Shown: piece by piece, positions 20,644-39,189 of the stretch | Layout of the letters: every line of letters starts with the position of its first letter | Position numbering within the stretch: position 1 is the first letter of the stretch | NCBI GenBank assembly: GCA_049472235.1 | Contig: JBLIRI010000001.1 | Location: 1 to 62,461 of the forward strand | Source of the DNA: Thermoplasmatota archaeon | GTDB lineage: Archaea > Thermoplasmatota > Penumbrarchaeia > Penumbrarchaeales > Penumbrarchaeaceae | DNA length: 62,461 bases | Reading direction: 5' to 3' | The notes under the pieces: model-generated | Database searches by the model: none | What the model saw: the letters and a program-made list of their open reading frames with translations, nothing else | What the model was told of the DNA's origin: nothing | Translations under genes and position numbers: made by a program

Positions 20644-23600
20644 TCACTTCTTCGGGGGAAGGGCCTTCTTTCTGCTCTTTCCACCTTCCAGTTCCTTTCT
20701 GCCCTTCCGGCCGTCCGTCATCCGCTTCCTGGGGGTCTCGATCATCTCCACGGATTGTTCCTTCTCCCTTCTATCGAGCCTGTAATAGGAATATCCCATC
20801 GCAGCGATTATCACAAGGAGGATCACCACGAAGATCACCATCAGCAGCTGGACATTGGAATCCTCCTCTCCGTTGGAGGATGTGGGGGGACCCGGGATAT
20901 TGCTCGGATCAACCACATGGATCGTTAGGGGTCTCGTGTAGGAGCTGATACCGTCCAATGAAATGATGGTGATGTTCAAAGATACCATCCCCTCCCTGGA
21001 GTCCTTGGATGCATCCACGTGGAAGGTGGTGTTCACCGAGGAGCCCGGAGCGACCTCTATCTGGTTCGTTCCCAGGGTGAGCTCCAGATCGGACCTCTGC
21101 ATTGCATCCCCGTCGACCCTTATCTTCATATTGTCGAAGGTGAACCCGCGATTGGATATTGTCAGGTTGATGGTAACCCCGCTGTCCTGGTATACGACCA
21201 CAAGGGTCCTTTGGAGATTGAGGACGGGATTGTATACGCCGATGGACATCGTGAAGTGGGAGATGGGGGCGAAATCCTTGCCGTCGGAGGATAGGATGTC
21301 GATATAGTAGACACCTTCCTGAAGGGTCGACATGATGGGATATCTGGTATCCGTCAGCACCGAGGTCCACTGGAGTACATCGGAGCCGCCGTAGAACCTT
21401 CCTATCCGGATGAAATAGTATACGGTGTCGCCATCTGGATCCTCCGCGGGGGTCCAGCTTATGGTCGGGGTCCTGTCGCTCGTGGCCTTTGGCTCGATGT
21501 CCATGACCGGTTCCGGGGGATAGTTCGCGTCCGTCGATATCAGAAGGGTCGTGTTTGATATCGGACCGTCCAGATCGTTGGCCGAAGGGACTATCTCCAC
21601 GAGGTATATGTGGCCGGGTATGAAGAGCTGGTCCGGTTCCGGGTCCCAGTATGTGTTCCCGGGGATGACATCCTCATCGGTGACTATGAATTTCTTGTCG
21701 AATGTATCATAGACGGAGATCCGGTACGATACGAAGTCGCCGTCGGGATCGAATGACGGCGACCATGTGATATGAGGTCGGACGGAACCCGATACCTTTG
21801 GCTGGATCGAAGCGATCTTGGAAGGGGGCCTGTCGGTGACCTCGTCGATCTTTTCCCGGATGACGATCTGCACGTTGGCGGATTGGCCTCCATTGCCCAG
21901 CAGGTCCCTTGCCCTCACCCGGACGAAATTGTAGTACCCGAAGGCCAGGGAAAGGTTGAAGGATATCTCCACCGCATCGTCAACGATCTCGTAGGTGCCC
22001 ATGATCGTCGATAGGTTCTGCCAGGGGAGGAAGTTCCCGACCCCGTCAAGGGAGTAGGAGACCTCGGTACGGTTCGGGTCCACGCCTATTCCGTTGTCGG
22101 TTATGCTCGCCCTGAAGCTAACAACTGTATTGTGGAACACGGCCCCTGACCTCGGGGAGGTCATATCGACGGCCGGACCGGATGCGTCCACCCAGACGCT
22201 GTAGGTCTCGCTGACGGAGTATTCCTCTTCCTCACCACCGTTGCCCAGCATGTCCTTTGCCCTGAACCTGATCAGGTTCTCCTTCCCCTCGAGGAAGGTC
22301 ACGTTCACGTCGTAAAGGGAGGTCAGGTTATCGATGGGATAGACGTTCCCCTTTCTCTGCCATCTGTCCCATTCCCCCTTCTCCTCCTGATAGGTCTGGT
22401 AGAAGATGGACCAGGGGTCCACCCCCGAGAGGTCGTCGCTGACCATTACCTGGAAGTTCACTATGTTGGAATCTATCCAGGCACTCTCTCCTGGTTTCAG
22501 CAGCTCGAACGTGGGCCCGGTCTCATCTATCCTCGGCAGGTTCTCAAGGGGCGTCTGAACTATTGTCTGGTTCCCCGATGCTGCCTTTGCGGAGAAGTAG
22601 AAATAGATGTCCAGGTCCCTCTCCACGACTATCGAGCAAAGATAGGTCTCTCCGTTGCGGTAGTCATAGTCCGGGGCAGGGCTCTTCCTGAGGTTCATCT
22701 CGAAGGGGGAACCGGGGTACGGGAATACGGAGCCTCCAAGTGTCCTATAGAACAGGTTGACCTTGGGATAACCGGCCCCGGGCGGGTCGTTCTCGACGTC
22801 ATAGTACGTAACCTTGAAGTTGTAGGTATCTCCCACCCCCCCCATCTCCGGATCTACCTGGCCGTCTTCCAGGGAAGGTCCGAAACCCTCCTCCCCGGAC
22901 TGTGTGGTCCGGGTGAAGAAGATGTCCACCTGGCCCTCCCTTCTGTTATCGGTCCAGACGAAGTATCCGAGACCCCCCCTTCCGACCGCAACCGCCGGAT
23001 CTTCCTGGGTAGACCCCTGCACGGGCTCGTTCACGGTGTAAGCACGGTCCAGGGTTCCATTGCTGTAGAGCCTCGTCATCATGATGTCGGATTTGTAATC
23101 GGAGACCCCGGGGGACGATGTCCACGTTATGGTCGAATTGCCTTCGTCATCCAGTGCTATCCTTGGTGAATACTGATGCCCGGATGTCGAATTCGGATGT
23201 AAGCAGGTATCGATGGAGAACGTCACACCAAGGTCCGAGGACCTTGCCATGTATATGTCCGAAGAGGTTGAACGGGGATCCTTCCAAACGATAAGAATAT
23301 CCGTGCTGTTGGCGGCAATGTCGGGCTCGTTCTGGTCGGAACCGGTCGGGTCCTTGCTGATCCTGATGGACTCGTCGAATGTCGAGCCTCCGTCGTAGGA
23401 GGATGCCAGGTAGATGTCCTCGTCCCACACCCTGTCGTCCGACCAGGTCACATGGACCCTCTGGTCCTCGGGAAATGCGACGGCCGGAGCGATGCACATG
23501 TAGGTGGTGGTCACATCGGATATCCTGACCGCTGTTTGGAAACCGGACCCCCTGTCGACCGATCCGTAGATCTGCGGGTAACCTGTCCTGTCCCTCGTGT

Positions 23601-24162
23601 CCTCCCAAACGACCGCAATGTTGCCTCCGGGGGATATATCGATATCGGGATTCATCTGGGTCCCGAGGAAATGATCGCTCACCTTCTTGTTGGTGGAATA
23701 TGACGAGCCCCTGTCGGTGGAGACCGTGCTGTATATCATCGACCTGCCGTCCCTGTCGTCGCCCCAGACAACGACCACGGTCCCATCCTCCATGATCGCC
23801 GCCCTGGGCGAGAGCTGGCTGGACACATCATCGGAAAGTGTTGGGGTCCTGGACGTGTCATCGACCCTTATCTCCGGACCGAAGGTCAGCCCCCCGTCAT
23901 GGGACGCTCTGGAAAATATGTCCCAGGTGCCGTGCCTCTGGTCCTGCCAGAAGATGTAAACGTCGTTCCCGCTCGCGACGATGTCCGGTTGGGCCTGCGC
24001 CGCTCCCTCGAGGTCCTTGTTGATGACCCTGTCCTTCTCGAAAGCGATCGAACCTCCCGCATCCTCTCCGCAGAGGAACAGCAGTGGGACCGGGGCCGAG
24101 ATCAGAAGCAGCATCGTCAGGATGGTCCATGTCCTGTTCAGGTTCAAGGTCCCACCCCCCAT
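20644..24162 (-). CDS. surface protein: BNR/Asp-box (sialidase-like) beta-propeller, Ig/FN3-like modules and a C-terminal TM anchor
   Basis: 1172 aa with an N-terminal TM/signal. Five Asp boxes: SHDGGLTF, STDRGSSY, SVDRGSGF, SYDGGSTF, SSDLGVTF. The C-terminal TM is VQLLMVIFVVILLVIIAAMGYSYY, followed by a basic tail. Confidence 0.8.
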   Translation of the reverse strand: MGGGTLNLNRTWTILTMLLLISAPVPLLFLCGEDAGGSIAFEKDRVINKDLEGAAQAQPDIVASGNDVYIFWQDQRHGTWDIFSRASHDGGLTFGPEIRVDDTSRTPTLSDDVSSQLSPRAAIMEDGTVVVVWGDDRDGRSMIYSTVSTDRGSSYSTNKKVSDHFLGTQMNPDIDISPGGNIAVVWEDTRDRTGYPQIYGSVDRGSGFQTAVRISDVTTTYMCIAPAVAFPEDQRVHVTWSDDRVWDEDIYLASSYDGGSTFDESIRISKDPTGSDQNEPDIAANSTDILIVWKDPRSTSSDIYMARSSDLGVTFSIDTCLHPNSTSGHQYSPRIALDDEGNSTITWTSSPGVSDYKSDIMMTRLYSNGTLDRAYTVNEPVQGSTQEDPAVAVGRGGLGYFVWTDNRREGQVDIFFTRTTQSGEEGFGPSLEDGQVDPEMGGVGDTYNFKVTYYDVENDPPGAGYPKVNLFYRTLGGSVFPYPGSPFEMNLRKSPAPDYDYRNGETYLCSIVVERDLDIYFYFSAKAASGNQTIVQTPLENLPRIDETGPTFELLKPGESAWIDSNIVNFQVMVSDDLSGVDPWSIFYQTYQEEKGEWDRWQRKGNVYPIDNLTSLYDVNVTFLEGKENLIRFRAKDMLGNGGEEEEYSVSETYSVWVDASGPAVDMTSPRSGAVFHNTVVSFRASITDNGIGVDPNRTEVSYSLDGVGNFLPWQNLSTIMGTYEIVDDAVEISFNLSLAFGYYNFVRVRARDLLGNGGQSANVQIVIREKIDEVTDRPPSKIASIQPKVSGSVRPHITWSPSFDPDGDFVSYRISVYDTFDKKFIVTDEDVIPGNTYWDPEPDQLFIPGHIYLVEIVPSANDLDGPISNTTLLISTDANYPPEPVMDIEPKATSDRTPTISWTPAEDPDGDTVYYFIRIGRFYGGSDVLQWTSVLTDTRYPIMSTLQEGVYYIDILSSDGKDFAPISHFTMSIGVYNPVLNLQRTLVVVYQDSGVTINLTISNRGFTFDNMKIRVDGDAMQRSDLELTLGTNQIEVAPGSSVNTTFHVDASKDSREGMVSLNITIISLDGISSYTRPLTIHVVDPSNIPGPPTSSNGEEDSNVQLLMVIFVVILLVIIAAMGYSYYRLDRREKEQSVEMIETPRKRMTDGRKGRKELEGGKSRKKALPPKK

Positions 24163-27100
24163 TCGTCCTCATCTTCCTCCCCTTCTTCCAGGTCCAGGTC
24201 CTCGAGCTCCATATCCTCGATCTCCTCCTCATCGTAAAGGTCGGCCTCTTCCTCGTCGATGACCTCGATCTCCTCCTCGACGGGGATCAGCTCGTCGCCG
24301 AAGCCTTCCCCATCCTCGTCTTCTTCCTCATCTTCCTCGTAATCTTCTTCCTCTTCCTCGTCCTCTTCCTCCTCTTCTTCCTCCTCATCCCAATCGAGCT
24401 CTTCGGAATCCCCGTAAATGTCCTCCTCATCCTCGAACCGGGGCAGCATCTCCTTGGACTTCTTCTTCTTCCTGCCCTTCTTCATGGCCTTCTCCATGTC
24501 GGTCTTGTCCTTTGCGGAGAAAACCGTCCCGCACTTCATGCAGTATTCGTCGGAAAGCCTCGCATCGGACCCGCAGTACGGGCATACCGGGACGAAGAAT
24601 TCGGGCTCGTAACGGGCCTCGACGAGGGGTTGTCCAGGTTCCGGCAGAGTTTCGAGGTCCCTTCTGGATATCAGGAAATAGACCGAGATACCTCCGATCA
24701 GAATACCGAAAAGGAGAGCTATCACGAGGAGAGGAAGCCACTCCTCGAACCAATCCCACATGTTGCCCTGGTCCGAACCGCTATCGTCATCATCGCCCTC
24801 ATCCTGCTCCACGGTCAGCAGATATCTCTGCGATTCCACGATGTTCTTTCCATCGGAGACCACGAGCCAGATCCTGTGGACACCCGGCCGCACGAGTGAA
24901 ACGTTCAATATCATTCCGTTTCCGAGACCCTCGCCGGAGGGGTATTTCTCGAGGTCCGAGAACCAGCTGTAGGTCAGGTTCATTCCCTCCGGGTCCAGGG
25001 AGGGAGAGCCGTCCAGGATGATCGGATCACCCTGGGTGATGACCTCCGTTGCCGGATATATCGCGAACTCCGCCGTCGGCGGAAGATCGATCTCCTTTAC
25101 CGCAACCTCGAGGCTCAACGGGGTCGAGACAACGAAACCGTTGCCCGCCATATCCTTCACCCGGAACCTGATGAGATTGAAGGGGCCCTCGTCGAGCTTG
25201 AGGTCCACCTCCCCTGCGAAAAGACCGCTTCCACGGTCCTCCAGTCCATCCACCGTTGTCCAGGGCGAGTAACCTCCGACACCGTACTGTACCCATCCGC
25301 TTATGGTCGAGAGGGAATATTCAACATCCGAGATCTGGATGCCTGAGCCCTCCTCCCTGATGAAAGCCGTCACGGTCACATCACGTTTCTGAATGATGCC
25401 CGAACCGTCGGGGGAGAAGCTCGAGAAGACCGGGAGCTCATCATCGATGAATATGGATATCAGGTCGCTCTCCACCGTATTGCCAGCGACATCGCTCACC
25501 GTCCACTGAGCGAAACCCCAGCCCCTGTAGGCCGGCAGCACTTCCACCAACGGGGAAGCGCTTGCCCCGGCCCCGGAGAGTCCGACCGTTGTCCAGGATG
25601 TGGTATATATCTCATCCCTGGACCCTATCCTGTATTTTATTGAATCAAGCAGCAATCCGGACCCGGTATCCTCCATGTAGCATCCGATGGAGAATGATCC
25701 GGTCCCCATCATCATACCGTCCTGATCGCCCACATCTATGGTGGGGATCCCGGTGTCCATGTTGAAGGAATACGGAAGGGAGATCGATATCTGACCCGCA
25801 AGGTCGCTCACCTTCCATTGAATGTAATGTCCGAACCCGTTTCCCACAGGTGCGGAGGTATTGAGTACAATGGAGTCACCCATGTTGATCGATGATCTCA
25901 CGTACATCCAATCCGACAGCAACCTCACGTCCGCCCTGTACACCCTGTACATTGCAGTGGACAGGTCGAGACCGGCACCGGTGTCCTTCACCCTTATCGA
26001 GAAGCTGTTCGTATCCTCTGTTATCCACGAGCCGTCTCCCGGACGAGCCTCGGTGAACCTCGGTCCATCCACGTCCAGGAGCATGGTCCTGTTCTCCAGG
26101 GGGCCCTTGTTGCCAGCCTTGTCATAGGCAAAGAACGAAAGAGTGTAGGACCCGCCCGGAAGGAACAGAAGGTCGCCGGGAAGCAGGTTATCCATCTCGG
26201 ATACCAGCTCCATACCGGCATCAAGGACGCGAAGCGTGTAGTTGGAAATACCGGAGCCTCCCTGGTCCAGGACATCGGTCCAGAATATCTCGATGACCTG
26301 ATCGTCATCGATGTTGGAAATGCCCGATTCCAGGCCGTCCGGGAAAATATTGAAGGAAGAAACCGGAGGAGGGGGGAGCGAGTCAACATCCAACCTGAAC
26401 GTCTGATCGCCATTCCAGACGGCACCGCGGGGAAGCGAACCGTTGGACAATCTGAAGGAAAGACCGCTTCCCCAGATCCCGCTGCCCGGAACTGTAGTTA
26501 TCGGATCGAGGAAGGAGCCGTTCATCGAGGACGAACCGATGGGGATCCCGTCAGGCCTCAGGAGCTTCACGACGATCTTCGAAGCATTGGCTCCGAAGGT
26601 CATCCCTGTAAGACCGTGAACCAGGGAGATGTTGGATAACGTTATCTCCGAATCCGCCTTCAGCCAACCCTTGACCGGGGAACCGGATGGATCGAGGACC
26701 TTCATCCCGCTCATATCGAGTCCGACCTCCCTGTCCACGACGAACTCGCTGTTGAGGTAGTTGGAATGCACCCCGGAGTAACCGTCAGCTGTGGTAACGA
26801 TCAAGGTGGGGTCCGGCAGGTCCCAGCCAACATCGACGGCGAAATCAACGAACCATGACTGGACGCTGTCCGTACGTGCCCAGCTTGCCGCCTTGTCCAG
26901 GATGATCTCGTTCTCGAAATCACCGGTCGCCGCCAGCGAGAACGTTTCTGTCTGTGTATCGAAGGCCAGCTCGGCGGAGCCGGCAGCTCCCTCCGATCTG
27001 ATCTGGACCGATAACTTCTCCATGTCCTGGTATCCGGCGAGGCTCCTGGCGTTCACCTTGAACATAAAAGGCCCTTCTCCTGGGGCCAGAACATCCTGCG

Positions 27101-30100
27101 ATCTCTGGAGCGGTCCGGCTATCGCCGATCCGCCGGATATTTCCAGAGGCATCGCCCTTATGGGCAGGTAGAAGAGGTCCTTCCCTTCCCAGTAATATAC
27201 CGCGCCGGGACTGTTCCCGTCACCCATGGGATCCGCGCCGGGCGCTCCGATGAACATATCGTACCTGCCGTCCCCGTTCACATCATCGCCCGCAATGGCG
27301 TAACCGGCCTCATCATTGTACATGAAACCCGAGATGATGGGAAGTGAGGTCGTATTGATCAGAAGTGACGATGAGAAGAGCGAGTTGGGAAACACGAAGA
27401 TACCCCCCGTGACCAATCCGCTGGAAACATCCCTGTAACCCTTTGCACCGATGAGGAGGTCGAGCTCCCCGTCGCCGTCGATATCTCCGATATCGACAGC
27501 CGAACCCGTTCTCTGGCTTTCCTGATCGCCGCATATCGAGACGTTGTATTCGCTCCTCAGGGATATCAGCCCCGAGGGAAGTTTAGAGGCGAGGAAGGAA
27601 CCCTCGAGGATGTACACGTTCCCACCCTCCTTCTTCGACCTCTGGAACCCGTCCCCGCTGGGGCTCCCCAGGAAGAGTTCCGCCTTTCCGTCGCCGTCGA
27701 CATCCTCGGCAGCCAGGGTCGATCCGACCTCGTCGTAGGGCCATGGTCCGAACACCCTGAGGCTCGGCTCCGTGGTGAGGTCGATGTTAGAATTCCAGGT
27801 GGACCTCCCCTCCAGGATGTAAGCGACCCCCTGGCGGGTTATGGCGCCTGCCTTGGATTTGGGAGCTCCTATCACGAGATCGTCGATCCCGTCATCGTCT
27901 ATGTCCGAGATCGCAAGGGACTCACCGATGAACTCGTTGTCCTCGGCCCCGATTATCTTGACATCGTAATTGTTCCGGGACTTGATGATCGAGCCCGAGA
28001 GGGGTCCGAACATGATATAGACCATACCCGCATGATACCGATTTGCCGTTTCCTGACCCGGATCATACGGTGCGCCGAAGGCCAGGTCGTCGATGTTATC
28101 GCCGTTGAGGTCCCCGACGGCAACGGAAGACCCAATCCTCTCCACGTTGTATCCTTCATAGGTGAGGTTCGGGGCCGATGCCATGTAGGTCCTCGATCCG
28201 CCCCAATATATGCTCACACTCCCCGCATCATTGTACAATCCATCTATCTGATTGAGGGGGGCTCCAACCACAAAATCCGGATATCCGTCGTTGTTGAGGT
28301 CACCGGTGGTCATGGACCTGCCGAACTCCGAGGTCTCCACCGCGTTGTTGTAATATATGTCCCCGTCGCCCGCTGCGAAATATCTCCCGCTCCATCCTTC
28401 CGGTTCTCCGAAGAAGAGGGTCACGTATCCGACCCTTTCGGGGCCGCCCCCGAGGGGGTCTCCGACGACAAGGTCGTCGTTGCCGTCCTGGTCGAAGTCC
28501 GCGACCACCATCACGGATCCGAACTTCGAGGCGTTGAACTGACCCACGAAGGATGCGTCGAATGAGCTTTTCAGGGAAAGGACGCTCACTAGTCCGGTGC
28601 CCGTAGATGGTCCAAGGTCGACCTCCTCGAACGCGGATGAGATTATGACCTCCTCCATCCCGTCAACGACCATCTCCGAAACGGCCATGCCGGAGAACGC
28701 CCCGCTGTCGGTGGTCCTTCCCTTGAAGGCCCGGACGGAATCCTGGAAGGTCATCGTGCCCGGGACCGTGCCGTCCAGGTCGAACACGTATGCCTCCCCG
28801 CAGTTGGGCTGTAGATTATCCACTCCGTCCCCACCCGGAGCGGTTATTATGAGTTCGTCATAACCGTCGGAATCCATGTCGGCTCCGATGGTCAGCTTGC
28901 CCCAGTTGTCCGAAGAATCGACGCCATAGGTCGTGACGTTGGCATCGGACCGGGTAAGCGTGATGTCGGAGGGGATCGACCGGCCGAAGAATATGTCGGC
29001 CTGGCCCACCTTCTTCCTCCAGACCTCGTAGCCAGTTGCATAGGGCAGGCCTATGACGAGGTCATCGCCCTCTTTTCCGTCAAGGTTGGAGTAGGAGAGC
29101 GAGGCCTCCTCCCATCCTCCCGGATAGAGGTCGATCTGGACATCGGCATCGAAATCTGCACCCTCATGGACCTGGATATCGGTCCCGGCCGGGACGCCGG
29201 GATATGTGAGGCTCCCGAGCTGGATCACGGCATAACCTCTCCCGCGGTATCTGTACGTGAAGGACAGGTCGTCCGTTCCGTCCCCGTTGAAATCACCGAC
29301 GGCAAGCCCGTTGCCTATGTGCGTGGCAAAAATATCCACCGTTGAAACGGCCTCTCCGAAATATCTCACCATTGGGGGCGTCAGCGAGAGGTCGACGGTT
29401 CCTATACCGGCAGTGTTCCCCTCGATGATCTCGATCTCCCACGACCCTAAGCATTCGTTGGTGAACTGGGATACCCCGGGTTCCCTGATGCCGCCGTTGC
29501 CCTCGGTGCGGATGACCATGTCAATGCTTCCATCGGCGTTGAGGTCGCCCGCTTCGATACCGATCCCCAGGTGATCACCCACATCCCGGCCGTAAACATG
29601 GGCGAAAAGGGAGACCCTGTCTATCTCCATCGAAGTGCCGAATGCGATCCTCTGCTTTCCCGCGATCACGTAGACCTCGCCGGAATCCCTGCGGGCATCC
29701 AACGGACCGTCAGCGTACGGGGCCCCTATCAGGAGCTCGTCCCTGCCGTCATTGTTGAGGTCCATAACATGAAGTGAGTGACCGAACCAGTCATCAGCAT
29801 CCCCTGCGGTGATGACCAGGTCAGCATCGTAATGGCCGACCGAAGTGAAAAGTTCGTCGGGCTCCCTGGCAAAGAACACCATCACCGCCCCTCCACCTGC
29901 TCCGAGGTCGGACTGCGGTGCTCCGATCGCTATGTCATCCCTGCCGTCCCCGTCCAGATCTCCGGAGGCGACGGAGGTTCCGAAAGGAACGTCCTTCTCG
30001 CCTCCCAGGACCGTGAAGATATCATCCCTTCCAAGGACAGTGTATGAATCCAGGTCCATGGAGATTGGCAGGTCTGTAACGATATCGCTACCGATGGTTA

Positions 30101-30170
30101 TCATTGGTATCGCCGATGCAAGAAATGTCAGTATTATTGCAAGGGCTACCATTCTGGGACTTCGGAACAA
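24144..30170 (-). CDS. giant surface protein: at least 12 FG-GAP repeats, Ig-like modules, a PKD domain, a TM helix, then a cytoplasmic zinc ribbon and long acidic tail
   Basis: 2008 aa. Repeats of the form FG.S.A.GD(L/I)(N/D)GDG.DD(L/I).IGAP. PKD-like segment PPTAEFAIYP...LTYSWF...VSDG. TM helix WLPLLVIALLFGILIGGISVYFLI, then VCPYCGSDARLSDEYCMKCG, KKGRKKKKSK and roughly 150 aa rich in E/D. Confidence 0.85.
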   Translation of the reverse strand: MFRSPRMVALAIILTFLASAIPMITIGSDIVTDLPISMDLDSYTVLGRDDIFTVLGGEKDVPFGTSVASGDLDGDGRDDIAIGAPQSDLGAGGGAVMVFFAREPDELFTSVGHYDADLVITAGDADDWFGHSLHVMDLNNDGRDELLIGAPYADGPLDARRDSGEVYVIAGKQRIAFGTSMEIDRVSLFAHVYGRDVGDHLGIGIEAGDLNADGSIDMVIRTEGNGGIREPGVSQFTNECLGSWEIEIIEGNTAGIGTVDLSLTPPMVRYFGEAVSTVDIFATHIGNGLAVGDFNGDGTDDLSFTYRYRGRGYAVIQLGSLTYPGVPAGTDIQVHEGADFDADVQIDLYPGGWEEASLSYSNLDGKEGDDLVIGLPYATGYEVWRKKVGQADIFFGRSIPSDITLTRSDANVTTYGVDSSDNWGKLTIGADMDSDGYDELIITAPGGDGVDNLQPNCGEAYVFDLDGTVPGTMTFQDSVRAFKGRTTDSGAFSGMAVSEMVVDGMEEVIISSAFEEVDLGPSTGTGLVSVLSLKSSFDASFVGQFNASKFGSVMVVADFDQDGNDDLVVGDPLGGGPERVGYVTLFFGEPEGWSGRYFAAGDGDIYYNNAVETSEFGRSMTTGDLNNDGYPDFVVGAPLNQIDGLYNDAGSVSIYWGGSRTYMASAPNLTYEGYNVERIGSSVAVGDLNGDNIDDLAFGAPYDPGQETANRYHAGMVYIMFGPLSGSIIKSRNNYDVKIIGAEDNEFIGESLAISDIDDDGIDDLVIGAPKSKAGAITRQGVAYILEGRSTWNSNIDLTTEPSLRVFGPWPYDEVGSTLAAEDVDGDGKAELFLGSPSGDGFQRSKKEGGNVYILEGSFLASKLPSGLISLRSEYNVSICGDQESQRTGSAVDIGDIDGDGELDLLIGAKGYRDVSSGLVTGGIFVFPNSLFSSSLLINTTSLPIISGFMYNDEAGYAIAGDDVNGDGRYDMFIGAPGADPMGDGNSPGAVYYWEGKDLFYLPIRAMPLEISGGSAIAGPLQRSQDVLAPGEGPFMFKVNARSLAGYQDMEKLSVQIRSEGAAGSAELAFDTQTETFSLAATGDFENEIILDKAASWARTDSVQSWFVDFAVDVGWDLPDPTLIVTTADGYSGVHSNYLNSEFVVDREVGLDMSGMKVLDPSGSPVKGWLKADSEITLSNISLVHGLTGMTFGANASKIVVKLLRPDGIPIGSSSMNGSFLDPITTVPGSGIWGSGLSFRLSNGSLPRGAVWNGDQTFRLDVDSLPPPPVSSFNIFPDGLESGISNIDDDQVIEIFWTDVLDQGGSGISNYTLRVLDAGMELVSEMDNLLPGDLLFLPGGSYTLSFFAYDKAGNKGPLENRTMLLDVDGPRFTEARPGDGSWITEDTNSFSIRVKDTGAGLDLSTAMYRVYRADVRLLSDWMYVRSSINMGDSIVLNTSAPVGNGFGHYIQWKVSDLAGQISISLPYSFNMDTGIPTIDVGDQDGMMMGTGSFSIGCYMEDTGSGLLLDSIKYRIGSRDEIYTTSWTTVGLSGAGASASPLVEVLPAYRGWGFAQWTVSDVAGNTVESDLISIFIDDELPVFSSFSPDGSGIIQKRDVTVTAFIREEGSGIQISDVEYSLSTISGWVQYGVGGYSPWTTVDGLEDRGSGLFAGEVDLKLDEGPFNLIRFRVKDMAGNGFVVSTPLSLEVAVKEIDLPPTAEFAIYPATEVITQGDPIILDGSPSLDPEGMNLTYSWFSDLEKYPSGEGLGNGMILNVSLVRPGVHRIWLVVSDGKNIVESQRYLLTVEQDEGDDDDSGSDQGNMWDWFEEWLPLLVIALLFGILIGGISVYFLISRRDLETLPEPGQPLVEARYEPEFFVPVCPYCGSDARLSDEYCMKCGTVFSAKDKTDMEKAMKKGRKKKKSKEMLPRFEDEEDIYGDSEELDWDEEEEEEEEDEEEEEDYEEDEEEDEDGEGFGDELIPVEEEIEVIDEEEADLYDEEEIEDMELEDLDLEEGEEDEDEWGVGP
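24170..24420 (-). repeat. low-complexity (GAR)n coding tract (poly-Glu/Asp tail)
   Basis: A long pyrimidine-only run on the + strand encodes EEEEEEEDEEEEEDYEEDEEEDEDGE and similar sequence. Confidence 0.8.
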
Positions 30171-30351
30171 GTCTCTTCCTCCTCTTATGCTACGTAGGGA
30201 TCGGCTGACGGCCAGTACTAGAAGTACCCAAGGTACTTAACCCGATTTCAACCGTTACAGATTATAAAAAGATTGTGGGGCAGATGTGTATTGGCGCCCG
30301 GGGCCAGAGCCGGAACGCCGATAAAACTTATCTCATATCGAAGCACTGCCA

Positions 30352-30771
30352 ATGGAGAAGATGAAGGAACACACAAGCATGAAGAGGTCTGAAATGACCA
30401 CCAAGGACCTTGGTCTGAAGGTGATCGATGACAGGCACTGGCTCTACCGCAGGACCTGTCACGGCGATCCATCTAGAAGCTTCTGGTGGAGAGGGAGGCC
30501 CATGCCATTATGCTCGAGATGCACTGCATTCTATCCGATGGTCCCGCTGGGTCTTTTGATAGGTATTTTTCTGACATTCTTCTTCGACCCACCGTCCTGG
30601 CTCGCACTTCTGGTGTTCTCGATACTTGAGGGGCCTCTGGTCATAGACGGCCTTTCACAATATCAGGGGATGAGAAGTTCCAACAACCTCATCCGGGCGA
30701 TCACGGGTGCGATGGCAGGGGCCGGGATCGGGGGCGGGATCGCCTTCATGGCCGTCTGGATCGCGGGCTGA
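30352..30771 (+). CDS. DUF2085-like membrane protein
   Basis: 139 aa. CHGDPSRSFWWRGRPMPLCSRCTAFY is followed by hydrophobic helices. Confidence 0.65.
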   Translation: MEKMKEHTSMKRSEMTTKDLGLKVIDDRHWLYRRTCHGDPSRSFWWRGRPMPLCSRCTAFYPMVPLGLLIGIFLTFFFDPPSWLALLVFSILEGPLVIDGLSQYQGMRSSNNLIRAITGAMAGAGIGGGIAFMAVWIAG

Positions 30772-31184
30772 TCAGTAAAAGCTCTTGCATTTTGGGCAGA
30801 ACCAGGATTCGACCCTTTCCTTGTAGGACATGCTCGCCCCGCAAACAGGGCAGGATTCTCCCTTCTTTCCTTTCTTGTCCTGGTTCATGAACATGGAGTC
30901 ATATGACGGCTGTTTGTCCACGCCGGCCTGGTCCGGGCTGGTGAAATCGAACTCGTCATCACGGGCTGCGATATCCTGGCCGGTACCGCATTCCGGACAT
31001 CTCTTGGAACCCTTGGGGATCTTTGCCCTGCAGTTCCAGCACTTGACCTTCGGGACCTTCTTACCGGGCCTTGGCTCTATCTCCTCTTCTTCCTCTTCTT
31101 CTTCTTCCTCTTCATAGCGCCTGCTAGGCCGCTTGATCTTCTTCTTTCGGGGAGGCTCTTCTTCTCGATAGGCTGCCTTCTTAC

Positions 31185-31197
<13 letters not shown>
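30772..31197 (-). pseudogene. start-less coding segment with two zinc ribbons; -1-frame continuation of the upstream Lys/Glu-rich gene
   Basis: My own translation of the minus strand gives ...KKKIGKKAAYREEEPPRKKKIKRPSRRYEEEEEEEEEEEIEPRPGKKVPKVKCWNCRAKIPKGSKRCPECGTGQDIAARDDEFDFTSPDQAGVDKQPSYDSMFMNQDKKGKKGESCPVCGASMSYKERVESWFCPKCKSFY*. There is no in-frame ATG/GTG/TTG upstream of the first ribbon. This frame is open from 31413. Confidence 0.6.
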
Positions 31198-32108
<911 letters not shown>

Positions 32109-32160
32109 CACTTCCACCTCGGGGGATCGATACCATACATCATGAATAGAAAATAAAAAG

Positions 32161-32221
32161 GTTTCCCACTTTTATCGGTTTTTAATCGAGCTAAAAGGTC
32201 AAGACCAATAAAGTGGGAAAC
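32161..32221. promoter_or_regulatory. 12-bp perfect inverted repeat in the gap between the 1071-aa gene and the Lys/Glu-rich gene
   Basis: GTTTCCCACTTT (32161-32172) pairs with AAAGTGGGAAAC (32210-32221), separated by 37 nt of AT-rich spacer. Confidence 0.5.
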
Positions 32222-32233
32222 ATAGCATAACCT

Positions 32234-35200
32234 TCACGGTGCGTCATCCATTGTCGGAGGTTCCATATCCTCTTCCATTTCGGATCCCATGTCCTCATCC
32301 TCAAGTTCGAGATCCTTTTCGGGGGGCTCGATCCCGGACCCGACCATTGCCGAGGTCCCGACCGAGGGGGTGCCCGGTGAAAGGCCCTCTCCAAGGTCCT
32401 CATCCATGGACCCCTCGTCCACCTCGTCCCCGGGAAGGTCCATGCCGCATTCGGGGCAGTAGGTCATTTCCTCCTCGAGAGAGGCCTTGCAGAACGGGCA
32501 CTCCTTTTTATGAAGCTCCTCCATCTCGGACCAGGTAGGCTCCTCGGAGGCCTCTGTGGATGGTGGCAATCCCTCTTCCGCTTCCTCTTCCTTTTCCTTC
32601 TTCTTATTGAAATATACAAGAGCGGCGACCGCAGCCCCGATCATGACCACGGCGATGACAGCGATCAGGATGATCAGCCATAGCTGTGACCCATTCTCGG
32701 AAACCTCCGGGATGCTCTCGATATCGGTGGGATCCGAACCTTTCTCGTATTCCTCCAGGTTCGTATACCCGTCCCCATCGAGATCGCCCTGGGCATCGGA
32801 AGCCCATTTCGGATTCAATCCCCACTCCACCTCCTTTCCGTCTGGTATGCCGTCATCGTCCGTGTCCGGATTGTCGGGCTCGGTCCCTATCTGATATTCG
32901 ACGAGATTCGTAAGACCGTCCTTATCGTAATCCTCCGCCGCATCGGTGTTGTCGGAAGGCGAAAGGAAATCGTACTGCAATTCGTAAACATCCGGGATCC
33001 CGTCCCCGTCCGTGTCTATATCCTCTTCCGAAATTGTCCTGAAATGGATCACCAGGTCAGGGGCCTCATTCCCTCTCAGGTCCATGATGGAACCCAGGGT
33101 GAAGGTGTAATTGGTGCCTCCGAGCAGGGAATCCTCGGAATAGAATGAGATCGTCCGGTTATCCAGGTCCAGGTTCGATCTCAACTGGACCGCCGAGCCT
33201 CCCTGAGGAACGAGGGACGATGTCAGTGAATCCCATCTGACCAGCTCAGAGAACCTCACCGAAATGAGAGGGCCTAGCTCCACATTCACCTCCCCGTCCT
33301 CCGGATAATTCGATATTATGCCCGGAGGGGTGAGGTCCGGGATCGATACTACCAGTGTGTATTCCTGATAGTTCCAGTTGCCTGCTATATCAAAAACCTT
33401 GATGGTCAGGAGATAGGAGCCGATATCGAGGTCCTTCACGAAACGGGTGCCGTGCACCTCCTCGTACGTGTAATTGTTAGAGACCGTCCATAGTACATCA
33501 TCTATGTCGTTGTTGTCGGTGATGTTCAGGGTCAGATCGACAGCTTCCCCTTCATAGAACTGAAGCGTGTCCCCTTCATGACCCTCGAGGAACATCTCGG
33601 GAGGAGTGAGATCGATCCAGATATCGGAGGAATTGTACGGGCCGTCGTTCCCGGAAGGATCGATGGACCTGAACATGGCATGATGTTTACCCTCGCTGAG
33701 GTAGAAATAGTACTGGAACACACCGTCCGTTGTTGTCCATCTCGTGATCTTCCCATCGGGATCCACGAAATCCTTGCCGTCAAGTTTGATCTCTATAACG
33801 GTCCGGTTCTCGCCTGTGACGTTCACTTTGAAACCTACCAGTGAGGTGTTGAAATAGAGTGAACCTGGAATGTACTGTTCCGAATCCAGGGGGAAGAACT
33901 CAAGCCTGGGGGATACCGGAGGCGTTATGTCAAGGGTCGTGAAATGGACCGACGAGGAAGGTGGACCAATATTCGGGGTCTCCGCATCATCCACTGAGAC
34001 TATCCACGCGGTCAGATTGGTCTCGGAGGGCAGATCCGTGACCTTATCGGTGGCGACCATGTGGCTGTCGATGTATTTGGACATGTTCCAGTTTCCATAG
34101 GTCTCCTTGACATGTATCCAGAAGCCGATCACATCATCGCTCGGGCTCGGATTCCACTTGAACTGCGCCCAGTCCCCTCCGAAATCCTTCAGGGTGAAGT
34201 TCCTGGGAGGTTCGGGGGGCACGATGTCCAGGGTCTTTCCGATGACGAAGCTTGTATTCCCGAGCGAGTTCGCATAGAAATCCTCCGACAGGATGCTGAA
34301 TTCCCAAAGGGTGTCGTGGGTCAGGCTGTCTACCACCAGGCTTCTCAGTGAATCGTCCGCGTTGACATACCTCATCGCGGAGAGCGGCTCGTTGGTCCGT
34401 TTGTACATTATGTTGAACCACCTCAGATCGACGGGAGGGTTCGGAAGGTCCCAAAGGAGCTCGATCGTCGTACCGGTCCTGTTCCCTATCCTGAGGTTCT
34501 CGGGCATCGGTGGAGGGGTCTTGTCGACTAACCAAGTAAGGTTGAAGTTGTCCCCGACGAAGAGTCCGGGGTCTTTGATATCATATCTCCAGTAGGCGGC
34601 CTGCCCGCTGAGCTCCCACCTCATGGTTATCTCCACTCTCACCGAGGACGTCCCGCCGTTGTGCTTGTACTGGTTCACCGCTATCGGCGGCATATCGCCG
34701 TTATCATCCGTTTTCATATCCTTCATGACGGAATCGAACACGGTCCACTCCTCGAGTTCGTTGGGGTATTTCTCTCCGAAGATCTTCACCGTGGCACCGC
34801 TTATCCCGGAAAGGTCCAGGTCGCTTATCGCCTTGAAGAAGAACCACTTGCCCTCGTTGACCTCCGCACTTGTGGCGGCGGTGGCGTTCATGGGCGCATT
34901 GAAGGTGCAGTTCACGAGCCATGCGTAGGCGCCGGTCGAGCCCCTGAAACCTGCCGAATTTCCCATGATGGTCGAATTGTAGACGAAGGCCCTCGATCCC
35001 ATTCCCATCGCTTTGACACCCCCGGCTGAACCCGTCATGACCAGATGCTCGATGATCCCGTATCCGCCCCTCGTCACATTTATCCCGTCGAAATAGAAGG
35101 AAGAATGGGACTTGTCGAGAGCGATCGGGGAAGCCTTCGTTCCCCGTGCTACGAGCTTCCCCTCGACCCAAATGCCGACGGAGGGGGGGAGGAGGACGGT

Positions 35201-35449
35201 AACGCCCGGATCGATCGTCAGTGTAACCCCCGAAGGTACGGTAATATTATCTTCCAGCAGGACCGGGGAATCGGATACCGTCCATCTTGTATTCCCCGCA
35301 AGCGTCCCACCGGGCACTGTGATGCCTGCGGCCCTCTCCGGAAGGACCGTCGAGAAAAGGCCGAACAGCGATGACAGCAGGAACAGCATCGTGATGGTGG
35401 ATGTGATCATCTTTCGGGAACCCGCAGTGTTGTAATTCTCACGGCTCAT
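32234..35449 (-). CDS. surface protein: beta-helix, FN3/Ig-like (SbsA/Big_5-like) modules, TSP3-like Ca-binding repeats, a TM helix, then a cytoplasmic zinc ribbon and acidic tail
   Basis: 1071 aa with an N-terminal signal. Has a PbH1-like repeat region. Ca-binding repeats are DTDGDGIPD, DYDKDGLTN, DTDDDGIPD and DLDGDGYTN. TM helix LWLIILIAVIAVVMIGAAVAALVYF is followed by CPFCKASLEEEMTYCPECG and an E/D-rich tail. Confidence 0.85.
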   Translation of the reverse strand: MSRENYNTAGSRKMITSTITMLFLLSSLFGLFSTVLPERAAGITVPGGTLAGNTRWTVSDSPVLLEDNITVPSGVTLTIDPGVTVLLPPSVGIWVEGKLVARGTKASPIALDKSHSSFYFDGINVTRGGYGIIEHLVMTGSAGGVKAMGMGSRAFVYNSTIMGNSAGFRGSTGAYAWLVNCTFNAPMNATAATSAEVNEGKWFFFKAISDLDLSGISGATVKIFGEKYPNELEEWTVFDSVMKDMKTDDNGDMPPIAVNQYKHNGGTSSVRVEITMRWELSGQAAYWRYDIKDPGLFVGDNFNLTWLVDKTPPPMPENLRIGNRTGTTIELLWDLPNPPVDLRWFNIMYKRTNEPLSAMRYVNADDSLRSLVVDSLTHDTLWEFSILSEDFYANSLGNTSFVIGKTLDIVPPEPPRNFTLKDFGGDWAQFKWNPSPSDDVIGFWIHVKETYGNWNMSKYIDSHMVATDKVTDLPSETNLTAWIVSVDDAETPNIGPPSSSVHFTTLDITPPVSPRLEFFPLDSEQYIPGSLYFNTSLVGFKVNVTGENRTVIEIKLDGKDFVDPDGKITRWTTTDGVFQYYFYLSEGKHHAMFRSIDPSGNDGPYNSSDIWIDLTPPEMFLEGHEGDTLQFYEGEAVDLTLNITDNNDIDDVLWTVSNNYTYEEVHGTRFVKDLDIGSYLLTIKVFDIAGNWNYQEYTLVVSIPDLTPPGIISNYPEDGEVNVELGPLISVRFSELVRWDSLTSSLVPQGGSAVQLRSNLDLDNRTISFYSEDSLLGGTNYTFTLGSIMDLRGNEAPDLVIHFRTISEEDIDTDGDGIPDVYELQYDFLSPSDNTDAAEDYDKDGLTNLVEYQIGTEPDNPDTDDDGIPDGKEVEWGLNPKWASDAQGDLDGDGYTNLEEYEKGSDPTDIESIPEVSENGSQLWLIILIAVIAVVMIGAAVAALVYFNKKKEKEEEAEEGLPPSTEASEEPTWSEMEELHKKECPFCKASLEEEMTYCPECGMDLPGDEVDEGSMDEDLGEGLSPGTPSVGTSAMVGSGIEPPEKDLELEDEDMGSEMEEDMEPPTMDDAP

Positions 35450-37356: not shown

Positions 37357-39189
37357 CTAATTCACCCCCTTCTTTGATCTGAGGGCCTTTCCTATCCCGC
37401 CCACGAATCCCCCCCAGATAATACCGAGGGTGAAGAGCATGACGAAGACGGTCGCGGCCCCGAACTCCATGTAGAGCTCCCCTCCCTCCTCAAGAAGGAC
37501 CGTATGGTACTGGTTCGGAGCGAAGGTCGGCTCAGTCACCGATCTACCCTGGGTATCCACCAGTTCGAAGTAATAGTAAAGCTCCCTGTCCTTCGATATC
37601 TTGAGGACCTCGGCGGACAGGTTGCCGCTCTCGTCCTCGACGACCGGAGCCGTCATCCATTCACCGTCCCCCCACCTGTAATGCACCCTGGTCCTGTCCA
37701 GGCTCATGGGTGTGGGATATCCCTCATCAACATACGAGAGGTATAGCCTGGCTCCGTCCCTGGTCTTTTCCCACCTTGTCGAGTTCTCGTCGAAACGGAT
37801 GAAGCTCTCGTACGGATTTGCAGCGGCATGGCAGAGGTAGAGGGTCGGTTCGAGGTTGATCTGGCAGTTCTCACGGATCTCCTCTGCGGGTATGGTGTGC
37901 CTGGTCCCGACCTCGAAGGTGTACCCCAAGGTCCCGTACTGGGAATAGAACCAGTCATTGAACTCACCGGTCACCGGATAGAGCTCGTAGCCCTGCATCG
38001 GCCTGTACCCGTTCATCTCGGCCATTCTCACGCCGAGCTGCTCCAGGACAGCGGCATCCTTTGTCGGTTCCGGGGTGTTACCCCAGGGCCAGAGGACGAG
38101 CTGTGAATATGAATGATATGTGATCGCCACCGGAAATAGGTGCTCTTCCCCGAGCTTCCTCATGGCAATGGTCTCCAGGGAGGAGAAACCCCCGGCGGGG
38201 TCCTCGTCCACCTTACCGTCTCCGTCATTATCGATACCGTCCCAGGGGTCCTCGTCGACCCCCTCGTCCGGGCCGATGGGGATGTAACCCGGGCGCACGT
38301 CGATCGGGATCACGGCATCCCCGTCATCGTCCACGTTATCAGGCGGCCCCCTGTAGGAGCCTCCGCTTGTGACGACCACGTTCGAGCCTCCGGCCTCGTG
38401 CCATGCCCAACCGTAATTTCGATTGATATCGACACCGTATGAGACCGGGACAAGGTCGGGGTTTATCACCCCGCCGGGGCCGAATTCGCTTATATAGTTC
38501 GGCTCCCGGTTCTTTCTCCATCCCCTTTCGCTATCATGGGCATACTGGACCCCATCCGCATTGAGGATGGGTATGAAATAGACCTCCCTGTTGTCGACGA
38601 TGAAGGTCGCGATGCTTCCGTTCTCCGTATCCTGCCCGTAGTTCTGGACGAGGAACGAGAGGACGTAAAGGGGAACTTCGTAGGAGATCCATTCGTTGCC
38701 GTGATGCGCTCCGACAAGCAGGACGTTCTCCTCGACCACCGGCCCGCCATCGTCCTCGAGACCGGGGTCGTCAGACAGCTTTAGGCACCACAGGTCCCGT
38801 CCCTCGTAGGTCCTTCCGATGGACCAGAGCTTGACAATATCCGGCCGGGTCTGCTCCAGGAACTGAAGGTACTCGGTCATGGAATTGTAATCGTAATAGG
38901 TGGTGAAGTTGCTCTCCTCGAGTATCCCGTCCGGTACCTGAAGGAGCGGGGTTCGGGAAGGGGCGGGACCGCTCGCCCGCCCTGCCTCGCCGGAGCCCCC
39001 GTTCAGGAACAAAATAGCGGAGCTTACCAAAAGCACCGTTATTAAAATGGTCCTTGAGCGGGGCCCGGAAATTTGGGAGCCCTCCATCGGGCTGGTAAGG
39101 TAGCCTGGTGTTATATCGTTTTCGATATTCTCCTGGGAAGCCGGTTTTACGGCAATTTCGAGGGTCCCGGACCCGTCCGGAAAGCCCAC
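37357..39189 (-). CDS. M14-family zinc carboxypeptidase, membrane-anchored
   Basis: 610 aa; an alternative start MEGSQIS lies at 39087. Carries HHGNEW (HxxE), YHSYSQLVLWPWG and an acidic DxDxDG-rich insert. There is an N-terminal hydrophobic segment and a C-terminal TM. Confidence 0.85.
   Translation of the reverse strand: MGFPDGSGTLEIAVKPASQENIENDITPGYLTSPMEGSQISGPRSRTILITVLLVSSAILFLNGGSGEAGRASGPAPSRTPLLQVPDGILEESNFTTYYDYNSMTEYLQFLEQTRPDIVKLWSIGRTYEGRDLWCLKLSDDPGLEDDGGPVVEENVLLVGAHHGNEWISYEVPLYVLSFLVQNYGQDTENGSIATFIVDNREVYFIPILNADGVQYAHDSERGWRKNREPNYISEFGPGGVINPDLVPVSYGVDINRNYGWAWHEAGGSNVVVTSGGSYRGPPDNVDDDGDAVIPIDVRPGYIPIGPDEGVDEDPWDGIDNDGDGKVDEDPAGGFSSLETIAMRKLGEEHLFPVAITYHSYSQLVLWPWGNTPEPTKDAAVLEQLGVRMAEMNGYRPMQGYELYPVTGEFNDWFYSQYGTLGYTFEVGTRHTIPAEEIRENCQINLEPTLYLCHAAANPYESFIRFDENSTRWEKTRDGARLYLSYVDEGYPTPMSLDRTRVHYRWGDGEWMTAPVVEDESGNLSAEVLKISKDRELYYYFELVDTQGRSVTEPTFAPNQYHTVLLEEGGELYMEFGAATVFVMLFTLGIIWGGFVGGIGKALRSKKGVN

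Follow-up and report, generated by a model that had tools for sequence, protein, structure and literature searches.

A candidate -1 recoding site conserved at a poly-A run in a four-ribbon gene between giant surface proteins of uncultured Thermoplasmatota

Background

The tau and gamma products of bacterial dnaX are a long and a short isoform from one gene, which carries an A-rich slippery run in its coding region and a stop codon a few codons away on one of the two paths. In Escherichia coli, a -1 frameshift at A_AAA_AAG leads into the frame of the short product, and Thermus and other bacteria use transcriptional slippage at runs of nine to ten A's (A9-A10). A10 runs in dnaX have been taken as a sign of transcriptional realignment (PMC3711429). 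Here, we describe a similar arrangement in a stretch of 62,461 nucleotides (nt) from a Thermoplasmatota archaeon (GCA_049472235.1, contig JBLIRI010000001.1), which is called the window in the following. In this window, a gene for a soluble protein built from zinc ribbons and blocks of lysine (K) and glutamate (E) is divided at an A10 run into two open reading frames (ORFs) in -1 relation, and is flanked by the genes of two giant surface proteins that each have a zinc ribbon in their tail. The gene differs from dnaX in that the shifted frame would lead to the long product, in belonging to an unrelated family, and in its archaeal host, and its recoding is read from the sequence.

In archaea, poly-A -1 sites have been reported in the Mg-chelatase genes of Methanocaldococcus and Methanococcus by Antonov et al. 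2013, and the shift efficiency of the Mg-chelatase site in E. coli cassettes was 10% with seven, 40% with nine, and 63% with eleven A's (PMC3711429). A review from 2021 counts a single demonstrated -1 frameshift for Archaea, namely the programmed one of the cellular gene fucA1 of Saccharolobus solfataricus (PMC8211752). Like the gene described here, the Mg-chelatase and fucA1 genes are archaeal cellular genes in which two ORFs are in -1 relation at an A-rich slippery site, but the present case concerns a new gene family and the Thermoplasmatota. In addition, fucA1 uses a heptamer, with a putative stem-loop, and most of its full-length homologues are not split, whereas all 12 lineages studied here are split. 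The tail assembly chaperones G and GT of phages show to what end a -1 frameshift may be used: it results in a fixed low ratio of the long form, in which an additional C-terminal domain docks a partner, and the part common to both forms is the scaffold. Unlike G/GT, to which it has no sequence relation, the present gene is a cellular archaeal gene and a scaffold role of its product is hypothetical.

The larger of the two surface proteins resembles integrin alpha in having an extracellular FG-GAP beta-propeller, Ig-like domains, a single transmembrane (TM) helix, and a cytoplasmic tail, and the soluble protein would take the place of partners such as talin and kindlin. In contrast to integrin alpha, it has two propellers' worth of blades and a tail that consists of a zinc ribbon and an acidic tract of about 100 amino acids (aa), and the candidate partner is a charge-block ribbon protein without a FERM-like domain. 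The tails also resemble generic membrane proteins of the Zn_Ribbon_1/DZR type (PF13240, PF12773, PF13248), in which CPxCG-x(10-12)-(F/Y)CxxCG is found beside a TM helix. They differ from these in that the ribbon is located C-terminal to the anchor of giant ectodomains and within a longer conserved tail. We did not find a described system of this composition in the literature. The most solid and novel element of the locus is the conserved -1 recoding site. Such cases are scarce in archaea.

Results and discussion

Two reading frames joined at an A run

Related loci (L001-L020) were compared from Thermoplasmatota metagenome-assembled genomes (MAGs) and unbinned metagenome contigs (NCBI MAGs, ENA, JGI, Logan). 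Together with the window they represent 12 distinguishable lineages: the window, L004/L007, L001-3, L009, L006/L008, L005/L011, L010, L015, L016, L017, L018, and L020. In all 12, ORF1 stops one to three codons after a run of A's and the ORF with ribbons 3 and 4 lies in the -1 frame, while the two are in frame in none (Table 1). The run has nine A's in two lineages, ten in nine, and eleven in one, and among lineages with the -1 relation the identity of the C-terminal module drops to about 50%. In L015, a TAA of the -1 frame is found immediately 5' of the run and a TAG of the zero frame two codons downstream, which leaves only about 15 nt for the shift. Of the 25 substitutions that distinguish the window from the 92%-identical L004 between the run and ribbon 3, 18 fall on third codon positions of the -1 frame, and this frame is therefore decoded directly after the run. 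Also, the alignment of the homologues and the substitution pattern reveal that ORF2 is under purifying selection. The A run is the longest in a gene with about 100 lysine codons, most of which are AAG.

Table 1. Positions of the soluble-protein gene, the two ribbon-tailed giants, and their direct neighbours in the window
Feature	Positions	Strand	Remarks
ORF1 of the soluble charge-block protein	31185..32108	-	open frame 31185-32117, 310 aa; likely start ATG at 32108
Promoter-like element AACCTTTTTATTTT	32150..32163	-	TATA/BRE-like; ~45 nt upstream of ORF1 start
Ribbon 1	32040-32096	-	ORF1
K-rich block	31677-31952	-	ORF1, after ribbon 1
Conserved island RGFDISS...IFVVG	31575-31676	-	ORF1; followed by poly-E block
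Ribbon 2	31407-31478	-	ORF1; followed by second poly-E block and EPPRKKKK repeats
A10 run, candidate -1 recoding site	31190..31199	-	zero frame AAG AAG AAG AAA AAA AAA AGA TAG; -1 frame continues AAG ATA GGT AAG
ORF2, -1 frame	30772..31197	-	EPPRKKK/E-block linker, ribbon 3, motif, K patch, ribbon 4, stop
Ribbon 3	30985-31041	-	ORF2
Motif DxFxF..P..G....YDxMFM	30886-30957	-	ORF2, between ribbons 3 and 4
Ribbon 4	30784-30852	-	ORF2, before stop
FG-GAP surface protein, 2008 aa	24144..30170	-	leader, ~14 FG-GAP blades, Ig-like domains, one C-terminal TM helix, 174-aa tail (1835-2008)
TM helix, FG-GAP protein, aa 1811-1834	24669..24740	-	hydropathy; 0 K/R before, 2 K/R after
Tail zinc ribbon CPYCGSDARLSDEYCMKCG, aa 1863-1881	24528..24584	-	Pfam Zn_Ribbon_1 23.9 bits, cut-off 25
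Post-ribbon segment (T/Q)VF(S/T)xxDKxxMEK, then basic patch KKGRKKKKSK	24453..24527	-	alignment of 11 orthologues
Acidic tract, FG-GAP protein, 97 aa	24147..24437	-	residues 1913-2008 net -64; ends in (D/E)xW(E/G)V(G/D/E)x
1071-aa surface protein	32234..35449	-	leader, beta-helix-like region, fn3, Big_5, TSP3 repeats, TM helix, 124-aa tail (948-1071)
TM helix, 1071-aa protein, aa 923-947	32609-32683	-	hydropathy scan
Tail zinc ribbon CPFCKASLEEEMTYCPECG, aa 984-1002	32444..32500	-	Pfam Zn_ribbon_3 26.5 bits, cut-off 27
Acidic tail, 1071-aa protein	32237-32443	-	after ribbon CPFCKASLEEEMTYCPECG
DUF2085 membrane-protein gene	30352..30771	+	Pfam PF09858 E=1.4e-22; convergent with soluble ribbon gene, 3' ends/stop codons abut
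BNR/Ig-like surface protein, 1172 aa	20644..24162	-	C-terminal TM helix, 50-aa basic tail without ribbon; downstream partner in all loci

Based on these comparisons, we predict with high confidence a programmed -1 recoding at the A run, by transcriptional slippage and/or ribosomal frameshifting. Standard decoding would result in a short isoform of about 307 aa (ORF1 with ribbons 1 and 2), and a -1 event at the run in a long isoform of about 445 aa that is extended by the invariant C-terminal module DxFxF..YDxMFM..CPVCG..CPKCK and, in the lineages that have it, by ribbon 3. When one extra A was simulated, a 445-aa protein was obtained for the window and proteins of 494-525 aa for the relatives. 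As in dnaX tau/gamma, the efficiency of the slippage would determine the isoform ratio. A stimulatory RNA structure 5-9 nt downstream is needed if ribosomal -1 frameshifting is to be efficient, but not for transcriptional slippage. A downstream hairpin is not conserved among the lineages, being present only in the window and L004 with z near 0 elsewhere, and there is no Rfam match. Because the runs comprise at least nine A's and lack a stimulatory structure, transcriptional slippage seems the most likely mechanism. The RNA polymerase would insert one A and thereby generate the fused frame, perhaps together with a ribosomal slippage at A_AAA_AAA/G, which is possible as well. The two hairpins directly follow the A run and have 7 bp in the window (31167-31189, minus strand; GATAGGT...ACCTATC; z=-0.47) and 8 bp in L004 (z=-3.7).

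Two points weigh against the recoding. A shuffle of the lysine codons within the gene is not significant alone (p 0.04-0.22), so that the case rests on position and conservation, and the two isoforms are predicted products. The other explanations of the frame break fare worse. The initial annotation had treated the break as a frameshift to be repaired, and indeed A10 runs are error-prone and contigs often end inside this repeat-rich gene. However, the same -1 state is present in 12 independent assemblies from different projects, with diverged flanks and runs of 9, 10, or 11 nt, and selection has preserved ORF2. A homopolymer error of sequencing or assembly, or a decaying pseudogene, is therefore effectively refuted. 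It is also very unlikely that the run is a DNA-level phase-variation switch, at which slipped-strand mispairing would turn the C-terminal module ON and OFF in subpopulations. Phase variation can be caused by poly-A tracts, in many cases within surface-related genes (PMC3711429), and the run length differs among the lineages, but the in-frame ON state is found in 0 of the 12 consensus sequences, the length variants keep the -1 relation through their flanks, and A10 is common to the near-identical population contigs L001-L003, which differ in poly-E length. Just as little can be said for two separate genes, of which ORF2 would be translated alone, starting either internally or by reinitiation after termination at the ORF1 stop. 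Gene callers annotate ORF2 as a protein of 92-115 aa, L005 has a GTGA start/stop overlap, and L004, L001, L006, and L005 contain a -1-frame start codon upstream of ribbon 3 or of its remnant. These possible starts are however at non-homologous positions, and in the window, L009, and L010 the -1 frame has no ATG, GTG, or TTG ahead of ribbon 3. In addition, the codon overlapping the stop is ATA, GTA, TTA, or CTA in 11 of the 12 lineages, the coding signature already starts right after the A run, and the conserved run of at least nine A's would be left without an explanation.

The soluble charge-block protein

The order of the parts is kept among the lineages. Ribbon 1 with a basic helix (MKVPCKKCQAKMDYPFNKCQECGWVPKGDLAKKAKKFAKKYEEKYG) is followed by variable K-rich repeats, the island RGFDISSEGDEGAV.SSYRPI.LDDDEEEIFVVG, a poly-E block of very variable length, ribbon 2 (VLKIRCKCGN.IKIRS..RPLKF.CD.CGRKGVLREE), and an E block with EPPRKKKK repeats. 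After the shift site, there are further EPPRKKK/E repeats, ribbon 3, the motif DxFxF..P..G....YDxMFM, a K patch, and ribbon 4 (CPVCG..M.YK.RV.SW.CPKCK.F). Ribbon 3 is missing in L005, L018, and L020, and the terminal module is present in all lineages. With 128 K+R and 109 D+E residues the protein consists of alternating charge blocks, and neither a TM helix nor another hydrophobic segment was detected in the hydropathy scan. An internal duplication, in which the FD..SY island of ORF1 would correspond to the ORF2 motif, was rejected (hhalign probability 0.6%).

Other than generic ribbons, the soluble protein does not have relatives in Pfam, NCBIfam, or the PDB. The weak PDB match of the fused protein is to ribosomal protein S27ae, a name that one JGI homologue also bears. 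Homologues of the ribbon-3/4 part (P0001-P0008) are annotated in Thermoplasmatota MAGs as "double zinc ribbon" proteins of 92-115 aa. In the search with the full-length repaired protein, low-complexity words filled the 8000 candidates and none scored, and with the C-terminal module as query, metagenomes yielded nothing but unrelated multi-ribbon proteins.

The core of the promoter-like element AACCTTTTTATTTT is identical in the window, L001, L009, and L015. A promoter motif common to several genes was ruled out, as the element upstream of ORF1 is the sole match in the window. Given that a conserved AAACCTTTTTATTTT element and a GAGGTGG Shine-Dalgarno sequence precede the ATG at 32108 in four lineages, the soluble gene appears to have its own promoter. 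The GAGGTGG also supports this ATG as the likely start.

The repeats of the gene also leave their traces in the assemblies. The length of the poly-E block differs among near-identical population contigs (L001 versus L003, 8772-9923), with 383, 384, and 361 aa for ORF1. At least nine contigs, from MAGs or unbinned, end inside the gene (L004-L006, L010, L012, L016-L018, L020), and it is therefore systematically truncated or mis-annotated in public assemblies. In L004 (1-250), the 5' part of the ORF1 frame is a TPR-like sequence (…FRAALACFYKALDADPLYEKA…) fused to poly-E, which replaces ribbon 1 and the K block. This join is located at the contig end and is probably a chimera at GAA repeats.

The two giant proteins and their tails

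The FG-GAP protein matches Pfam FG-GAP (PF01839) with E=4.8e-77 in 11 stretches and also FG-GAP_3, while its Ig-like and PKD matches are weak. Orthologues are encoded at 11 loci and have 1963-2093 aa. The cysteines of the tail ribbon are invariant across these 11 orthologues, and only one other 30-aa stretch of the protein is more conserved than the ribbon window at aa 1860-1889 (0.79 compared to a mean of 0.61). The alignment of the tails shows ..VP.CPYCG...R.TDEYCM.CG.VF...DK..MEK, the basic patch, an LP motif, and a C-terminal (D/E)xWEVxx. The acidic tract, which contributes to a net charge of -60 of the tail, is conserved in composition and not in sequence. At the extreme C-terminus (24147-24167, minus strand), after about 100 acidic residues, 11 of 11 orthologues have the tryptophan motif (D/E)xW(E/G)V(G/D/E)x, which looks like a short linear docking motif. 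An exhaustive search with the tail over 1.84 billion representatives yielded only about nine true relatives (clusters at E<=1e-10), each of which is either an orthologue of about 2000 aa or the C-terminal fragment of one. The tail is thus private to one orthologous family and has not been shuffled among ectodomains. The remaining matches were generic multi-ribbon or TM-plus-ribbon proteins, and a profile search with the aligned tails gave no matches.

In the 1071-aa protein, fn3, Big_5, and TSP3_bac exceed the Pfam cut-offs, and the tail has a net charge of -33. Orthologues are present in L001-3, L009, and L015, and the tail pattern PTWSE...KECPFC.A..E..M.YCPECGM.LP.DE is kept in L001 and L009 and looser in L015. 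An exact look-up of the protein returned no record. The ribbon motif is formed by four of the eight cysteines of the 2008-aa protein and by four of the five cysteines of the 1071-aa protein. Considering these counts together with the conservation in the orthologues, the probability of a chance pattern is negligible, and the invariant Cys4 sites are putative zinc sites.

Both giants have an N-terminal hydrophobic leader. The 15 aa that precede the C-terminal TM helix are free of K/R, and two to four K/R follow the helix. A Cys4 ribbon is expected in the reducing cytoplasm. The leader, the flank charges, and the Cys4 site favour a cytoplasmic location of the ribbon tails of both giants. They are type-I membrane, adhesin-like proteins with conserved tails after the C-terminal TM helix.

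All motifs that the initial annotation had described for the three ribbon genes were found again at the stated positions, so that its observation is confirmed: a ribbon after the TM helix of the 2008-aa protein together with the KKGRKKKKSK patch and the acidic tract, a ribbon and an acidic tail after the TM helix of the 1071-aa protein, and, between them, a gene without a hydrophobic helix that has K and E blocks, two ribbons in ORF1, and two more in the -1 frame. Its view that the tails are inside the cell agrees with the leader and flank charges, which would place them in the cytoplasm. Other statements need to be narrowed. The motifs of the module attributed to all three genes exist, but in the soluble protein the exact pattern of the tails recurs only in ribbons 1 and 3. 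Among the domain labels, FG-GAP, fn3, and TSP3 exceed the Pfam cut-offs while PKD and beta-helix stay below. The other surface proteins of the window lack a ribbon as stated, but the tail of one (20644-24162) has 50 aa instead of at most about 45. Finally, the three genes are not strictly consecutive, as the plus-strand DUF2085 gene (30352-30771) is placed between the middle gene and the FG-GAP gene.

Gene order and neighbouring genes

Wherever the contigs allow, the same order is found, namely an M14 peptidase, an SNF transporter, a small ORF, the 1071-aa protein, K/E ORF1 and ORF2, DUF2085 on the opposite strand, the FG-GAP protein, a BNR-like protein of about 1170 aa, and an AMP-ligase. The co-localisation of the soluble ribbon gene with ribbon-tailed giants that the initial annotation proposed to survey was kept in every lineage sampled, including relatives with 37% tail identity. 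The soluble ribbon gene was always found with the FG-GAP gene and never apart from it in the 12 lineages. Between the window and L001 or L009, the orthologues are 47-86% identical. The locus is best explained as an island of surface-protein genes that is specific to a lineage of uncultured Thermoplasmatota.

The window has about nine TM-anchored surface proteins, and according to the hydropathy scan only the two that flank the soluble gene have ribbon tails. The others have tails of 11-50 aa without a ribbon. The sole other CxxC...CxxC pair among the membrane proteins of the window is CEECG...CSEC in an inter-helix loop of a multi-TM protein (15039-15884, minus strand).

The DUF2085 gene is at the same position in every related locus that covers it, and stays beside the ribbon gene even where an extra gene precedes the FG-GAP gene. 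In L016, the position is held by a minus-strand gene of 182 aa without a Pfam family on record. A C..H...C..C motif was noted at the N-terminus of the gene at the DUF2085 position. The extra gene encodes an FG-GAP/PA14 surface protein of 1458-1472 aa on the opposite strand (L015 5255-9673, minus; L017 993-5369, minus), and in the L015 copy, the tail is short and lacks a ribbon.

The FG-GAP gene and the downstream 1172-aa BNR/Ig-like gene overlap by 19 nt (24144-24162) and are therefore probably co-translated. Their tails have opposite charges, -60 for the FG-GAP protein and +9 for the BNR/Ig-like protein, whose K/R-rich tail ends in ..LPPKK. All loci have this pair of genes, which could be a sign of a heteromeric receptor. 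Also encoded in the window are two giant gingipain-like C25 peptidases with a membrane anchor and, next to an SNF-type transporter, an M14 carboxypeptidase (37357-39189, 42825-46343, and 52515-56558, all minus strand). This set suggests a lifestyle of extracellular protein degradation.

A possible connection between the tails and the soluble protein

Considered jointly, the conserved ribbon tails, the independently promoted and split four-ribbon gene, and the programmed recoding probably describe the locus correctly. Whether the tails and the soluble protein belong together is a different question, on which the ribbons themselves are of little help. The tails and ribbons 1 and 3 have CxxC-x11-CxxCG, while ribbon 2 is CxC...CxxCG and ribbon 4 ends with CxxCK. 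Ribbon 3 matches Zn_Ribbon_1 with 26.8 (cut-off 25) and DZR with 29.8 (cut-off 27.3), ribbon 1 matches DZR with 17.1, and ribbon 2 has only weak matches to SprT and HVO_2753. In profile-profile comparisons, the two tails score 41 against each other and 14-36 against the soluble ribbons (22-36 for ribbons 1, 3, and 4), with ribbon 2 unrelated. A control profile, for which ribbons of unrelated proteins were used, reached scores of 46 and 45 with the tails. Since the control scores are at least as high as the score between the tails, the common pattern only denotes the ubiquitous Zn_Ribbon_1/DZR class, and it carries no information on a specific partnership. The initial argument from matching modules is thereby lost.

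What is left is the charge. The tails have -60 and -33, compared to 128 K+R in the blocks of the soluble protein. The soluble protein might be a submembrane, multivalent, charge-driven scaffold for the acidic ribbon tails, which we propose only tentatively. Its K blocks would bind to the acidic tracts, and the C-terminal module of the long isoform would provide a specific docking or nucleating end. Several observations weigh against such a scaffold, apart from the control profile just mentioned. The three ribbon genes are separate transcription units with an opposite-strand gene in between, and L015 and L017 have a further giant gene between the DUF2085 and the FG-GAP genes. The conserved synteny also includes unrelated genes, such as those of the M14 peptidase and the SNF transporter, within a fairly shallow clade; at 47-86% identity, synteny by descent is therefore inseparable from functional linkage. 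Moreover, the E blocks of the soluble protein could neutralise its own K blocks intramolecularly, the AlphaFold2 (AF2) model of the C-terminal module is of low confidence (pLDDT 65), and the interaction of the tails with the soluble protein is hypothetical.

The main rival, which may quite possibly be true and has somewhat less than an even chance in our view, is that the soluble four-ribbon protein has a role unrelated to its neighbours, for example as a nucleic-acid-binding or chaperone-like polyampholyte. In this case, the gene order would simply have been inherited within a narrow clade, and the ribbons of the tails would have some other partner or only stabilise the tails. This would fit the generic nature of the ribbons, the extent of the synteny, which reaches the M14 peptidase, SNF transporter, and AMP-ligase genes, and the promoter-like element of the soluble gene itself. 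TM-plus-cytoplasmic-ribbon proteins are also widespread outside this locus (P0031, P0034, P0039), and the weak PDB match and the name of the JGI homologue both point to S27ae. However, an unrelated role does not account for a soluble gene that in 12 lineages is never away from the FG-GAP gene, for ribbon tails on just the two flanking proteins among about nine TM-anchored ones, and for the extreme charge complementarity. It is rather improbable that the tails and the soluble protein recognise each other ribbon to ribbon and in this way couple outside to inside, as in integrin-adaptor signalling. The CxxC-x11-CxxCG pattern common to the tails and ribbons 1 and 3 and the conserved linkage would be in agreement with it, but there is no specific kinship beyond the generic class, L005, L018, and L020 have kept the tail ribbons but not ribbon 3, and the integrin hallmarks other than FG-GAP are missing. 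Neither GFFxR nor FF(K/R)R is found in the tail of the FG-GAP protein, and a scan of 15 proteins of the window, all neighbours among them, detected no VWA domain. With regard to the Thigh and Calf leg domains of integrins, Pfam gave only weak bacterial Ig-like and PKD matches. Thus, of the integrin-like module that was initially proposed, the FG-GAP propeller stands, but a GFFKR motif is absent from the tail and a VWA or beta-subunit-like gene from the neighbours scanned. For transmembrane coupling in general, none of the three refuting outcomes named in the initial annotation was obtained, namely tails placed outside the cell, ribbons of unrelated families, or a lack of conserved linkage, but the positive evidence is weak. 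With generic ribbons, separate transcription units, and a synteny that takes in unrelated genes, the integrin-like coupling is unproven, and plausible by charge complementarity only.

Conclusions

The recoding site, conserved in 12 lineages within an unannotated protein family, is a clean new test case for slippage of the archaeal RNA polymerase or ribosome. It also has a practical side, as the current annotation of MAGs splits or truncates the soluble ribbon gene. The conserved ribbon/acidic tails beside a charge-block protein are a testable candidate for how wall-less or S-layer-poor sediment archaea connect their adhesins to the interior. It is conceivable, but unlikely, that the locus encodes a prokaryotic counterpart of an adhesion-receptor/adaptor system, in which the giant FG-GAP and fn3/TSP3 adhesins would be clustered, or coupled mechanically or by signals across the membrane, through their zinc-ribbon/acidic tails and a charge-block scaffold whose stoichiometry, with the short form as bulk and the long form for docking, would be set by slippage at the A10 run. 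If this were true, these archaea would have a recoding-tuned and possibly condensate-like submembrane layer.

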